Source of the DNA: Candidatus Bathyarchaeota archaeon
Lineage (GTDB): Archaea; Thermoproteota; Bathyarchaeia; Bathyarchaeales; Bathycorpusculaceae
DNA: 64,000 nt
Direction of reading: 5' to 3'
NCBI GenBank assembly: GCA_963815095.1
Contig: CAWFFH010000003.1
Coordinates: forward strand, 1,184,001 to 1,248,000
The notes under the pieces are model-generated. The model searched no databases, was not told the DNA's origin, and saw only the letters and a program-made list of their open reading frames with translations. Positions within the stretch are counted from its first letter, which is position 1, and each line of letters begins with the position of its first letter. The translations under genes were made by a program, and so were the position numbers. This document shows positions 30,103 to 33,551 of the stretch, in pieces.

Positions 30103-30248
30103 GTCGGTTGAGTCTAAACCTCACAAATGGCACCGCCTAATCGGAAAAGCACTTGCTACTCGCCACCTTGATGTTATCTCGGCTGCGTTTTAGCAGTAAC
30201 TTAGCGACCAATACTGCGTGTCACCGTGAAGCGTGTTCCTCAACCGGC
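30103..30248 (-). ncRNA. Candidate structured ncRNA, copy A (rod-like hairpin with basal k-turn)
   Basis: Ends pair (CGGUUGAG/CUCAACCG); core GUUGAGGAACACGCU...GGUUUAGACUCAAC shared with copy B; upstream CCAACA-N6-TATATTTGATC. Confidence 0.65.
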
Positions 30249-30325
30249 ATTAAGATAGACTCTTTTGATCAAATATATTGCTTTGTTGGCTCACTGAGAT
30301 GCCAACAGAAAACAGGTGAAACGTT

Positions 30326-31108
30326 TTATTTTCTAAATTTTGCTGTCCGGTTAGCGATTAACGTGGCTACTGCGCCGGCTGCGACGCCGCCATCAATGTT
30401 AACTACCGCTAACCCCAAAGAGCAGGATTGAAGCATAGCCATTAATGCGCTCAAACCTTTTTCGCCAAAACCGTAGCTGTTAGAGGTTGGAACAGCAATC
30501 ACTGGAACATCAACCAACCCTGACACCACAGAAGCCAATGCGCCTTCTCTTCCTGCCACGACCACAACTACATCCACATCCTCAGATAGGACCTGTTTTA
30601 AAGGTTCAAGTAACCTGTGGATTCCTGCTACCCCAACATCGTAAGTTGAGAAAACAGTACAACCCATCTCTTGAGCAATAATTTTTGCTTCTTCAGCTAC
30701 CGGGATGTCTGAGGTTCCTGCAGTTAAAATTGCGATTTTTCCACCAGTGGGGGTTATGGCGAAATCTTTCTTTTTTATCACAGCCATTCTGGCTTTATCA
30801 TTAATCTCAAGCAAAACCTCGCTGGAAAATGCTTCTTTAATCGCTTGCATATGCTCACTTGAACATCTGCTGACAATTACTCTTCCACTTTTAGTCAGCA
30901 TTCTTTTAGATATTTCAGTAACGTCATTTGCTGTTTTGCCTTCAGCCAAAATAATTTCAGGGATACCCTTACGCAGCTCCCGGTTTCCATCAAGCTTTGC
31001 CAAGCAACCAACTTCATCAACGGCAAGCATCTTTAACAATTTTTCAGCTTCAGACGGCGAAATCTGATTTGAAGCAACTTTATCTAAAACTTCTCTTAAC
31101 GATGGCAT
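30326..31108 (-). CDS. larB: Nickel pincer cofactor biosynthesis protein LarB
   Basis: RKGIPEIILAEGK, AGTSDIPVAEEA, DVGVAGIHRL, PTS..YG and VVNID motifs. Confidence 0.95.
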   Translation of the reverse strand: MPSLREVLDKVASNQISPSEAEKLLKMLAVDEVGCLAKLDGNRELRKGIPEIILAEGKTANDVTEISKRMLTKSGRVIVSRCSSEHMQAIKEAFSSEVLLEINDKARMAVIKKKDFAITPTGGKIAILTAGTSDIPVAEEAKIIAQEMGCTVFSTYDVGVAGIHRLLEPLKQVLSEDVDVVVVVAGREGALASVVSGLVDVPVIAVPTSNSYGFGEKGLSALMAMLQSCSLGLAVVNIDGGVAAGAVATLIANRTAKFRK

Positions 31109-31185
31109 AAACAGACAATATTTAAAAAACGCAACTTAATATATCTATTATGTTTGCTTGCTTGAGAAAGTTTTTGTGATAGATT

Positions 31186-32427
31186 ATGGTTGAATCCAAA
31201 AAAATTCTTGTAATTGATTGTCAGGCTTCCGGGGTGGCGGGAGATATGATTCTTGGGGCGTTAATTGATCTTGGAGCTTCCGTTGACAAGATTAACGGCG
31301 CCATAAAATCTTTGGAGAACCCCAAGTATGGCTATGAAAACATCAAAATCGACATTGCAGAAGTAATGCGGGGCGAATTCAAAGCTACCCAAATCAACGT
31401 GACATCAAAATCGGCCCCCAAAAGGCATGGAAGCGAATTAATTGGCATAGTAGAAAAAGCCTCCAGTGAGCTTGTGCTTTCGGAGAAGGCTAAACAGTTC
31501 GCTTCAAACGTAATCCACTCGCTCGTTGGCGAAGAAGCGGATTTGCATAAAACCTCTTTTGATGATTCACATTTGCATGAGGTGGCAATGGTTGATACTG
31601 CGGCAGAAATTATTGGTTGTGCAGTTGCGTTGGATGATTTGGGTTTGTTTGATTCAAAAATCTATTCTACCCCTGTAGCGGTTGGCGGTGGAACATTCAA
31701 GTTTTCTCACGGCACGGTTTCAAGTCCTGCACCAGCGACATTAGCTATTCTTCAATCAAAGAATTTTCCCTTCCAAGGCGGACCTATTGAGGCTGAACTT
31801 GCAACGCCGACGGGTGTTTCCATTTTAGTAAATTTGGCTGAGCAAGTTAATCGTTTTTACCCTCCTATGGCGCCGTTGAGGATTGGTTATGGCGCAGGAA
31901 CCAAAGAGTTTGCTGAGATGCCCGCAGTTCTTAGACTTACAATAGGCGCCACTATCGACAATGAGGTTGTTAAAGATGAAATCGCAGTTTTAGAAACCAA
32001 CATAGACGATGCCACAGGTGAAGTCTTAGGCTACACAATTGACAAACTGCTCCAAGAAGGCGCAAAAGACGTATCCATCACCCCGATGGTTACAAAGAAA
32101 AACCGTCCCGGACAAATCATAAAAGTTATCGCGGACCAAAAAGACGTACCTCACCTCTCAAGCGTACTCATAGCTGAGACAGGAACCCTTGGAGTACGAG
32201 TTTACTATTGCGAGCGACACATCATTGCCCGAGAATTATATTCTGTTGATTTGCCCCTTGGCGGAGCCAAAGAAACCATCAGGCTTAAGGTTTCAAAAAA
32301 CAACAACGGAGAAATCCTTCGCATTAAACCAGAATTCGACGACCTTAAACGGGTAGCGGAAAAAACCAAGAAGCCTCTAAGAGAAATATCGGACCTTGCC
32401 ATTTCTAAAGCCCGGGAAATGCTGTAA
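31186..32427 (+). CDS. larC: Nickel pincer cofactor nickel insertase LarC
   Basis: GVAGDMILGAL, HLHEV, PAPAT, TPTG, LETNIDD, KKNRPG, ETGTLGVR and KPEFDD motifs. Confidence 0.95.
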   Translation: MVESKKILVIDCQASGVAGDMILGALIDLGASVDKINGAIKSLENPKYGYENIKIDIAEVMRGEFKATQINVTSKSAPKRHGSELIGIVEKASSELVLSEKAKQFASNVIHSLVGEEADLHKTSFDDSHLHEVAMVDTAAEIIGCAVALDDLGLFDSKIYSTPVAVGGGTFKFSHGTVSSPAPATLAILQSKNFPFQGGPIEAELATPTGVSILVNLAEQVNRFYPPMAPLRIGYGAGTKEFAEMPAVLRLTIGATIDNEVVKDEIAVLETNIDDATGEVLGYTIDKLLQEGAKDVSITPMVTKKNRPGQIIKVIADQKDVPHLSSVLIAETGTLGVRVYYCERHIIARELYSVDLPLGGAKETIRLKVSKNNNGEILRIKPEFDDLKRVAEKTKKPLREISDLAISKAREML

Positions 32428-32439
32428 TCGGTGGTTTGC

Positions 32440-33270
32440 ATGGAAGTTTTGAATCATAAACTTGAAACGCTAAAGTCTTTTGTTAAGGAAAAGGGTAAGG
32501 ATGGGGTGGTGATTGCTTTTTCTGGGGGTGTGGATAGTTCAACTTTGGCGGCGGTTAGCCTAGGGGTTTTGGGTGGGATGGCAGTAGCTGTTATTGCCAA
32601 ATCTCCTACGTACACGTCTGAGGAGTTGCAGGATGCCAAGAAAATCGCTTCAGAAATAGGCATCAAGCTCTTTATTGTGGAAACCAACGAGTTAGAAAAC
32701 CCAGATTTCAAGAAAAACCCCGAAAACCGCTGTTACTTCTGCAAAAAAGAATTGCTCACAAACCTAACCGCCTTTGCACATGAACTCGGGTTTAAAGCGG
32801 TGTTTGAAGGCACAAACTTCAGCGATCTAAGCGATCACCGACCTGGCTTCAAAGCTGTTCAAGAAATCAAGGGAGTTTTCAGTCCCTGGATGGTCAATGG
32901 TTTCACTAAAGATGAGATTCGCCAAGTTGCCAAACAGATGCGACTTAGTGTACATGATAAGCCTGCCTTGGCTTGTTTAGCGTCAAGAATACCGTTTAAC
33001 CAGCAAATCACCACGGAAAAGCTAACGCGGATCGATAGGGCAGAGCAGGCAGTTAGAAAGATTACGGGGATTAGAACGGTTCGGGTTAGAGACCACAATG
33101 GCCTAGCACGAATTGAAGTCCCAAAATCGGAGAGGGCGCTGGTTTGTAACGTGAAAATTTTGGATAAGGTGGCAACTGAGTTGAAGGCGTTGGGGTTTGC
33201 GTATGTGACTTTTGATTTGGAAGGTTACTGTTCAGGTAGCATGCTAAAAACGCTCAATCCAACCTCGTAA
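32440..33270 (+). CDS. larE: ATP-dependent sacrificial sulfur transferase LarE
   Basis: AFSGGVDS PP-loop, RCYFCK, RPG, CLASRIP and VRVR motifs. Confidence 0.95.
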   Translation: MEVLNHKLETLKSFVKEKGKDGVVIAFSGGVDSSTLAAVSLGVLGGMAVAVIAKSPTYTSEELQDAKKIASEIGIKLFIVETNELENPDFKKNPENRCYFCKKELLTNLTAFAHELGFKAVFEGTNFSDLSDHRPGFKAVQEIKGVFSPWMVNGFTKDEIRQVAKQMRLSVHDKPALACLASRIPFNQQITTEKLTRIDRAEQAVRKITGIRTVRVRDHNGLARIEVPKSERALVCNVKILDKVATELKALGFAYVTFDLEGYCSGSMLKTLNPTS

Positions 33271-33304
33271 GAATTTCGCTTACCAGGTTTGCAAGAAAAA
33301 ATTG

Positions 33305-33442
33305 CCCGTTGAGTCTAAACCCTGCAGTAAGCATATTTTGCTTTAATTCTTGCTTAATGTCTCCTTTTTCGCGGGAAACCTTCTTCAAGCAGTCAATTAA
33401 AAGTCACTAATATGCTTCTGTCGAGCGTGTTCCTCAACTGGG
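33305..33442 (-). ncRNA. Candidate structured ncRNA, copy B (paralog of 30103-30248)
   Basis: Ends pair (CCCAGUUGAG/CUCAACGGG); internal stems AAGCAUAUU/AAUAUGCUU, UUUAAUU/AAUUAAA, UGCUUGA/UUAAGCA, GUUUCC/GGAGAC; same upstream promoter motif; U-tract downstream. Confidence 0.7.
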
Positions 33443-33551
33443 AAATAACATCCTCTCAGGATCAAATATAATGTTATGTTGGTGCCACGGCACTACATCA
33501 AAATTTAAACAAAAAACTTAAACAATACCGCGTAGATGTATCGGTGCTGGT

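Follow-up and report, generated by a model that had tools for sequence, protein, structure and literature searches.

Comparative analysis shows that two loci on the minus strand of a 64,000-nucleotide stretch of DNA from a Candidatus Bathyarchaeota archaeon (assembly GCA_963815095.1, contig CAWFFH010000003.1, positions 1,184,001 to 1,248,000; the whole stretch is called the window, and coordinates refer to it unless a contig or locus is named) are real genes of a conserved family of structured small RNAs that are predicted to be transcribed independently. An initial annotation of the window had described these loci, here denoted copies A and B, as two paralogous structured RNA genes, and both were found to belong to a single covariance-model family. 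Their features are as follows.

30102..30249, minus strand: copy A RNA gene, ~148 nt, 146-nt type, apical motif kept; 126.4 bits, E 1.2e-30 with covariance model R1
30233..30244, minus strand: copy A base module, 5' half, consisting of the strand GUUGAG (30244-30239) of the terminal helix P1 and the loop GAACAC (30238-30233)
30107..30120, minus strand: copy A base module, 3' half, consisting of GGU (end of the second helix, P2), the loop UUAGA (30117-30113) and the P1 strand CUCAAC (30112-30107)
30168..30180, minus strand: copy A apical motif GAGAUAACAUCAA, conserved in 48 distinct sequences of the 146-nt type, in the 165-nt form and in the genus g153
30267..30289, minus strand: copy A promoter, CCAACA (resembling the transcription factor B recognition element, BRE), six nucleotides and TATATTTGATC, read in the sequence
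30071..30092, minus strand: copy A downstream T-runs (30092-30089 and 30077-30071), a likely terminator
33303..33443, minus strand: copy B RNA gene, ~141 nt, base module kept, interior diverged and A+T-rich, without the apical motif
33460..33482, minus strand: copy B promoter, CCAACA, six nucleotides and TATATTTGATC, read in the sequence
33296..33301, minus strand: copy B downstream T6 run, read in the sequence

The two copies have in common a 5' end, GTTGAGGAACACGCT (30244-30230 in A and 33438-33424 in B, both on the minus strand), and a 3' end, GGTTTAGACTCAAC (30120-30107 and 33321-33308), which amount to an identical prefix of 15 nt (GUUGAGGAACACGCU in RNA letters) and an identical suffix of 14 nt (GGUUUAGACUCAAC). 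The interiors, of 109 and 102 nt, are unrelated: their alignment score of 0.0 is no better than those of shuffled sequences (-5.9 +/- 4.0, with a maximum of 4.0 in 200 shuffles), in agreement with the initial observation that only the ends are common to the copies. Each interior folds back as originally proposed, the predicted structure being a long interrupted hairpin closed by a helix of the paired ends, with a free energy of -52.3 kcal/mol for copy A (z -3.3; 1 of 200 shuffles equally good) and -43.3 kcal/mol for copy B (z -5.5; none of 200 shuffles equally good). Copy B is recognized by R1 with a score of 90.7 bits (E 1.9e-21). Across the 2.69-Mb genome, either end motif occurs at 0 mismatches only at the A and B sites, which also form the only pair with both ends, and matches with 2 mismatches are as frequent as those of reversed control patterns.

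Both of the RNA forms that were aligned show clear covariation. In the alignment to R1 of 68 sequences, mostly of the 146-nt type, 94.7% of the cells are paired and 13 of the 20 pairs show changes on both sides; none of the 500 shuffles reaches any of the five pairing measures, and sliding the partner by one column lowers the pairing to about 46% (at most 46.6%). The values for the 165-nt form are closely similar, with 93.7% of the cells paired, double changes in 19 of the 31 pairs and 0 of 500 shuffles as high. Covariation, which the initial annotation had named as a check, is evident in both forms beyond all 500 shuffles.

The common anatomy that emerges from the alignments starts with P1, a helix of 10-12 bp formed by both ends that covaries freely and is entirely rewritten in distant members, for example, as GUAGGUCAGG/CUUGACCUAC or GCCAAG/CUUGGC. 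P1 is topped by an internal loop that is nearly invariant, with R-A-R-Y-A-N on its 5' strand and U-U-A-G-A on its 3' strand. Among the 115 sequences that could be parsed, of 124, the A at position 2 of the loop is opposite G in 110, position 1 is occupied by G in 85 and by A in 29, and most have UUAGA or UUAGG as their 3' strand. The start of P2 is also invariant (GCU opposite GG followed by C or U) and then becomes variable, with a covarying fifth pair (G-C in 40, C-G in 30). The interior is a rod or a branched structure, free in length and sequence, so that the whole RNA spans ~126-235 nt, and it is capped in most members, from the 146-nt type through g153, by an apical hairpin with the motif GAGAYAACAUCAA(A). 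Among the aligned family members, this hairpin is missing in copy B and in some other paralogs and orders. Copy B has lost the apical module; what it retains is the promoter, the P1 helix, the base loop, the P2 start and a rod that is stable.

The ~225-nt form of the RNA and the RNAs of two other families carry one or two extra hairpins with a 12-nt loop, GAAACRGCNGAAA. In these two other Bathyarchaeia families, the RNA is ~130-137 nt long (L220:206-342, L221:1030-1166 on the minus strand, L213:199-326 and L223:195-331), adjoins a gene for a protein with a predicted PD-(D/E)xK fold that is considered below, and contains an 11-bp hairpin that carries the conserved 12-nt loop, with AAGAC and UGGGCYG after it. 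The hairpin together with AAGAC/UGGGCYG makes up a second conserved module, which the 225-nt form has as well.

The predicted transcription signals are conserved along with the structure. The distance from the start of the TATA box to GTTGAG is 33 nt in copy A and 32 nt in copy B, as first reported, and T-runs follow both copies where a U-rich tract had been noted. In 56 sequences of the 146-nt type and 46 of the 165-nt form, a purine-rich BRE-like tract and a TATA box are found at a fixed distance, ~28-31 nt before the first P1 base, and a run of at least four Ts occurs within 30 nt downstream in 44/56 and 43/46 of these sequences, respectively. The suggestion that the two copies are co-regulated is not supported, its sole basis being a promoter inherited by common descent. 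The excess of G-U pairs on the minus strand, originally noticed in A and B, extends to the family: the mean minimum free energy of 68 family sequences is -52.6 kcal/mol in the sense and -37.2 kcal/mol in the antisense orientation, and the sense strand is more stable than its complement in 63 of the 68. Such a difference between the strands is expected from G-U pairs in an RNA and not in a DNA palindrome.

A covariance search of Bathyarchaeia genomes, another check that had been proposed at the outset, recovered the family throughout the class and beyond. In a BLAST search against 40 relatives, many genomes of the genus show matches, either full-length or confined to the ends, and 15 of these have both end motifs ~130-142 nt apart. 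Model R1, built from 16 sequences, detects 1-3 copies in 44 of the 61 genomes of the genus (31 of the 38 high-quality ones), with tandem or clustered copies in several of these; at the level of the taxonomic family, it matches 37 of 151 genomes and 21 of 70 genera, mostly the ~165-nt form, usually one per genome, and in some cases the ~225-nt form. Model R2, built from 46 sequences of the 165-nt form, matches, with strict filters, 20 of the 151 class genomes and, at the phylum level, 11 of the 13 genomes of g153, a genus of another class; base loop and apical motif are unchanged in the six g153 loci that were read. When one genome per species (~186,000 species) was scanned for the exact two-ended pattern of the 165-nt form, 39 records were found, all labelled Bathyarchaeia, Bathyarchaeota or MCG. 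As judged by these matches, the range of the family takes in Bathyarchaeia broadly and, within the same phylum, at least one genus from a different class; copies A and B appear to be genus-specific extra paralogs. The original framing as a pair of copies at the lar locus proves too restricted: the family spans two classes and its contexts vary.

The genome from which the window comes encodes a third member outside the window (C3:12484-12713, corresponding to L154:985-1213), which is ~230 nt long and has a wholly different P1, GUAGGUCAGG/CUUGACCUAC, a base loop GAGCAA/UCAGA, and two hairpins with the 12-nt loop GAAACRGCNGAAA. The 400 nt around this member are identical on contig C9 (~39060-39289), so that C9 may duplicate the start of C3.

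A conserved neighbor of the RNA is a gene of ~220 codons that lies on the opposite strand, head-to-head, ~100-300 nt from the RNA start, and encodes a protein with a predicted PD-(D/E)xK fold. This gene adjoins the RNA in 16 of the 22 loci of the longer forms that were examined, including all 15 loci of the 162-168-nt form, in 8 of another 18 loci, which come from other families and orders, and in all 6 loci of g153, that is, in the second class. In the loci of family f1 that were checked, it is followed by a small GIY-YIG gene. When 19 regions upstream of the gene were taken from genomes of other families in which the filtered search had missed the RNA, R2 without filters detected the RNA in 7 of the 19, and an eighth case, with the base module, was recognized by eye. 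Of the 151 class genomes, 74 have the gene, each in a single copy; it is carried by 18 of the 20 RNA-positive genomes compared to 56 of the 131 others.

The fold assignment rests on an AlphaFold2 (AF2) model that was obtained from a 35-sequence alignment, with a predicted local distance difference test (pLDDT) score of 91.2, and has three helices in its N-terminal part and an alpha/beta core. The core sought was the alpha-beta-beta-beta-alpha-beta arrangement of PD-(D/E)xK enzymes, with acidic residues on strands 2 and 3; the modeled strands span residues 67-73, 79-86 and 89-95, and D81 (strand 2) and E94/E96 (strand 3) are invariant. The top Foldseek matches are mostly restriction-endonuclease-like proteins, led by 3dnx (probability 1.00, E 2.9e-3) and including 4g6v; the proteins represented are SPO1766, CdiA-CT, Can2, XisH, SfsA, the R2 endonuclease domain, NucS and Hjc, and no row reaches E <= 0.001. 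An earlier AF2 model, from 15 sequences (pLDDT 67.6), gave weak Foldseek and VIA-align rows and generic three-helix matches to residues 1-90. At the sequence level, the protein has no match above the Pfam cut-off, none in NCBIfam or PADLOC and none that is significant in a search of PDB sequences, and in the Atlas it falls only in 'hypothetical protein' clusters, the nearest named cluster, PDDEXK_14 at 0.85, being a lead only. The gene can be described as the oldest conserved neighbor of the RNA family, lineage-specific and, according to the model, with a predicted nuclease-like fold.

Taken as a whole, the data incline us, by a little, to the view that the RNA of this family is stable and functions in trans as the RNA component of a ribonucleoprotein (RNP). 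In such a particle, the invariant base loop would be the protein-docking site, the rod would serve as a spacer or scaffold, and the apical hairpin could provide a second contact, copy A keeping both conserved modules and copy B the base module only. Given the k-turn signature of the base loop, L7Ae is one docking candidate, the PD-(D/E)xK neighbor being the other. A more specific proposal, that the ~165-nt RNA and the PD-(D/E)xK protein, perhaps with the GIY-YIG protein, form a novel, vertically inherited RNP with an RNA-dependent or RNA-regulated nuclease activity, appears rather unlikely; if it held, the genus paralogs including A and B would diversify the system.

Several observations weigh against the RNP view. 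Six upstream regions from f24 give no RNA match even with unfiltered R2 and, by eye, have seemingly coding DNA at the gene start instead. In the genome of the window itself, the PD-(D/E)xK gene (C3:1004505-1005164) has no RNA beside it, A and B being located elsewhere; here, the gene is paired with a GIY-YIG gene (C3:1004505-1005443), and the divergent side contains no recognizable RNA. Since the gene stands without adjoining RNA in these cases, the link is not obligatory in cis. The head-to-head order retained across classes could also reflect a shared regulatory region rather than a physical complex, and the Foldseek E-values are weak, the best being the 2.9e-3 cited above. Furthermore, three of five rechecked genomes of the genus, 95-96% complete, yielded no member with R1 and R2; the RNA may be dispensable in these genomes or diverged past detection.

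The same evidence bears on the possibility that the PD-(D/E)xK/GIY-YIG pair has the RNA as its own regulator or cofactor, be it guide, activator or inhibitor, the whole being a new RNA-dependent nuclease system. The retention of the head-to-head pairing across two classes, the biased co-occurrence (18/20 against 56/131) and the nuclease-like modeled fold, in which D81 of strand 2 and E94/E96 of strand 3 are invariant, all speak for such a role, but there is no obvious single-stranded guide, the interiors of A, B and the 225-nt form have no complementarity to the genome beyond chance 14-15-mers, the gene is found without adjoining RNA in the f24 regions and in the genome of the window, and the extra RNA paralogs are not matched by extra protein genes, so that we would assign this possibility a minor chance. 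An atypical H/ACA-type pseudouridylation guide, suggested by the presence of Cbf5 downstream in 15 of the 68 loci and of a k-turn-like motif, is about the least credible of the alternatives: no ACA box follows the terminal helix, the k-turn-like motif is basal instead of being located in an upper stem, the loop is invariant between paralogs and hence cannot be a variable guide pocket, and the Cbf5 neighborhood is an ordinary rpl14e-cbf5 cluster. A cis-acting role as an untranslated region, riboswitch or other regulatory RNA of the neighboring lar genes seems most improbable as well. Copy A begins ~80 nt past larB and has the same orientation, copy B and larE converge, and LarC is encoded at most 2.5 kb from 16 of the 68 loci; however, each RNA has its own predicted promoter and terminator, the copies are downstream of the lar genes and not in leaders, 15 of the 68 loci have Cbf5 downstream, an intron-bearing tRNA is on the other side in 8 relatives, and in other genera, where the RNA lies by the PD-(D/E)xK gene, no lar genes are present in the stretch examined.

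We give equally little credence to a DNA-level element, either a miniature inverted-repeat transposable element (MITE) or an attC-like recombination hairpin, that would bracket the lar genes as a mobile cassette. Such an element would account for the direct copies flanking larB-larC-larE both here and in the relative G189, for the imperfect palindromes with conserved GTT...AAC ends and for the tyrosine integrases near 7 loci. Against it stand the copy number, with just two both-ended copies of this type in the 2.69-Mb genome and 1-3 per genome, mostly syntenic, in 44 of 61 relatives, which led us to reject the MITE reading; the G-U pairs, which occupy stem positions on one strand only, with the attendant difference between -52.6 and -37.2 kcal/mol; and the promoter and T-runs at fixed distances. 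Copies had to be counted and their flanks inspected for target-site duplications according to the initial annotation, and no such duplication is seen in the flanks of A and B. The integrase in the window belongs to an element in the adjacent tRNA gene, and integron attC sites have their ends in the reverse order to the GTT/AAC-outside ends of this family, which counts against the attC-like variant.

The alternative that deserves the closest scrutiny, and that we regard as possible although rather doubtful, is that the conserved ends adopt a standard k-turn to which L7Ae binds, so that the RNAs constitute a family of L7Ae-dependent small RNPs. Under this arrangement, the terminal helix would be the non-canonical (NC) helix, UUA the bulge, and the R3-Y pair with the following C-G pair the canonical (C) helix. 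The k-turn, as defined in the excerpted text of PMC5061560, consists of a bulge of three nucleotides with G.A and A.G pairs coming 3' of it, and the letters of the family match this definition, with 3' Y-UUA-GA-CUC opposite 5' GAG-GA giving a UUA bulge and tandem G.A/A.G pairs. In k-turn numbering, A1n is A in 110 of the 115 sequences, G1b is nearly always G, and 2n is occupied by G in 85 and by A in 29, A at this position (G2nA) being described as a non-standard variant in the same excerpt. The -1n/-1b pair is Watson-Crick without exception (A-U in 53, G-C in 60), -2n/-2b is C-G or U-G, and the 3b.3n pair is C-G, as in the U4 type; k-turns with a Watson-Crick C-G pair at 3b.3n, such as U4, fold poorly in metal ions alone according to PMC4382518 and PMC5061560. 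The genome of the window encodes two L7Ae-family proteins.

The flanking helices fit this arrangement less well. The C helix would consist of only two Watson-Crick pairs followed by an A.G position, and its 3' strand, GGY, is also the P2 partner of the invariant GCU; many members have a P2 of 5-9 pairs without interruption, and covariation is seen in its distal part, at the fifth pair among others. With P2 in this register, A1n is separated from the helix by four nucleotides on the non-bulged strand, which leaves no simple k-turn, and the thermodynamically favored fold makes the motif an internal loop of 6 x 5. The A-U/G-C switch at -1n/-1b separates the 146-nt type from all other forms and, dividing just two clades, may be a single event. 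The k-turn claim of the initial annotation accordingly survives in part: its sequence signature is present, with G.A/A.G in most of the 115 sequences, but the C-stem that it proposed, in an AC/GU register, shares 3' nucleotides with the better-supported P2 (GCUUCAC/GUGRGGU). Because this C-stem competes with the covarying P2, L7Ae binding can be called possible and nothing stronger. With a perfect signature and a flanking helix that favors another register, the family is a natural test case for k-turn prediction.

The immediate surroundings of copies A and B comprise the following genes.

30326..33270, mixed strands: larB (minus), larC (plus) and larE (plus) between the copies, Pfam AIRC, Ni_insertion and NAD_synthase-like; neighbors, not RNA
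30326-31108, minus strand: AIRC/LarB-like gene (Pfam)
31186-32427, plus strand: Ni_insertion/LarC gene (Pfam)
32431-33270, plus strand: LarE-like ATP pyrophosphatase (ATP-PPase) gene (Pfam)
33543..33677, plus strand: intron-bearing, class-II-like tRNA gene with a long variable arm, divergent from copy B

The three lar genes that A and B were said to flank were thus verified, and the order RNA-larE-larC-larB-RNA recurs in G189 (locus L111). One-sided lar neighbors are common in the genus, LarC being found within 2.5 kb of 16 of the 68 family loci, and orthologs of copy A lie downstream of larB in the relatives G001, G009 and G006. Cbf5 is encoded downstream of the RNA in 15 of the 68 loci, mostly with rpl14e (NCBIfam L14e) first, and other paralogs occupy further contexts. 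We infer that the position of A and B around the lar genes reflects the local gene order of the genus and implies no role in the nickel-pincer cofactor. Just downstream of copy A, there is a 144-nt direct repeat with 72% identity (29065-29208 and 29786-29929), and an 81-aa open reading frame (ORF) near this repeat (28645-28890, minus strand) encodes a Mu Gam/Sipho_Gp157-like domain of TOTE conflict systems.

On the other side of the locus, copy B occupies the position in which, in 8 relatives, an A-like RNA stands head-to-head with an intron-bearing tRNA; copies of the tRNA gene that are 92-95% identical adjoin the RNA in L047, L048 and L051-L056. The tRNA gene at 33543-33677 was missed by ARAGORN and by the Rfam tRNA model at the gathering score, and accounts for a weak 'tmRNA' row in the permissive Rfam scan; its anticodon loop, CUUAAGA as identified by eye, suggests tRNA-Leu(UAA). 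An integrated element of ~5.5 kb (33647-39192) has 31-nt repeats of the tRNA 3' end at its boundaries (33647-33677 and 39162-39192, 94% identical) and contains a tyrosine integrase gene (33776-34612, minus strand), a gene for a SLOG/LDcluster4 protein (34786-35364, plus strand) and a G+C-rich, 52-nt direct repeat with 94% identity (36033-36084 and 36206-36257, 173 nt apart). Because the tRNA 3'-end repeats bound the element, the integrase belongs to it and not to the RNA. An association of integrases with the RNA was rejected more generally, the integrases by several copies belonging to elements inserted in neighboring tRNA genes. Genes for tRNAs recur beside the family RNA: in G016 (L058/L075), the RNA and an intron-bearing tRNA-Asp are head-to-head, and the tRNA 3' end adjoins an archaeal-type integrase gene, and in G007 (L059), the locus includes a tRNA-Arg, and a related ORF is located upstream of the RNA.

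None of the forms of the RNA matches any of the 4227 models of Rfam release 15 at the gathering threshold, which bears out the initial statement that the RNAs do not resemble tRNA, signal recognition particle (SRP) RNA or H/ACA RNA; when the whole window is scanned at the gathering score, tRNA-Arg is the only match. Permissive E-value scans of the A/B region and of the 165-nt and 225-nt loci return chance-level rows along with an ordinary tRNA in L138. Divergent forms of RNase P RNA and SRP RNA were rejected because both RNAs are found elsewhere in the genome with scores over the cut-off (RNaseP_arch at C4:254633-254930, 181.8 bits; Archaea_SRP at C3:36867-37181, 157.4 bits). Antisense targets were likewise rejected, given that the interiors of A, B and the 225-nt form match the genome elsewhere only as chance 14-15-mers, as were the bulge-helix-bulge (BHB) splicing motif and the sarcin-ricin/loop-E motif, the letters of the loop, compared by eye, fitting neither consensus. 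No description of such an RNA turned up in full-text literature searches, which did not cover supplements. As to novelty, our claim is limited to this: the family matches no Rfam family, and we found no description of it.

Bathyarchaeia are abundant sediment archaea for which we know of no genetic system or curated RNA catalogue. The family described here is a concrete RNP candidate from this class, considering its covariation, its own predicted promoters, its conservation in two classes and its conserved protein-gene partner, and the covariance model is now available for annotating a gene that is currently left unannotated. If the link to the nuclease-like protein is true, the archaeal repertoire would gain an RNA-protein nuclease pair of the housekeeping type.

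Among known RNA elements, the base loop is most directly comparable to k-turns such as Kt-7 and that of the U4 snRNA 5' stem-loop, with which it shares a UUA bulge followed by 3' G-A, tandem G.A/A.G pairs and a -1b/-1n pair that is always Watson-Crick; like U4, as presented in the excerpted text of PMC5061560, it has a Watson-Crick pair following the G.A pairs. The difference is that the motif, in the favored predicted fold of the family, is a 6 x 5 internal loop. The likeness to Y RNAs is one of architecture only. These Ro60-bound RNAs of animals and some bacteria are independent units, present as few paralogs, in which an end stem with a protein-binding bulge supports a variable upper part, and the present family similarly has paired ends with a loop and a variable upper part, but there is no sequence similarity and no Rfam match. 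A search of the 98% complete genome for the Ro/TROVE domain (PF05731) gave no match, and a Ro/Y RNA reading was rejected in view of this lack of a TROVE gene.

Finally, the family can be compared to the box C/D and H/ACA small RNAs (sRNAs). Box C/D sRNAs are marked by box C (RUGAUGA) close to the 5' end and by box D (CUGA) close to the 3' end. Neither box is conserved at the ends of the sequences in the three family alignments, as originally claimed, and the C/D snoRNA rows of Rfam are at chance level, so this assignment was rejected. H/ACA sRNAs have an ACA box 3' of the lower stem, a k-turn or k-loop in the upper stem and a variable guide pocket; here, the 3' flanks after P1 read CGGC or UGGC followed by varied sequence, and the loop is invariant between paralogs, so this assignment was rejected as well. 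The family thus differs from both classes in having no C, D or ACA boxes, in the interiors being double-stranded rods and not single-stranded guides, and in the location of its terminal helix on the NC side of the motif and not on the C side. In other respects it is like them: the C/D and H/ACA sRNAs are small archaeal RNAs with a k-turn as their conserved protein-binding element, of which the family has the sequence signature, and in both cases several paralogs differ in their interiors.

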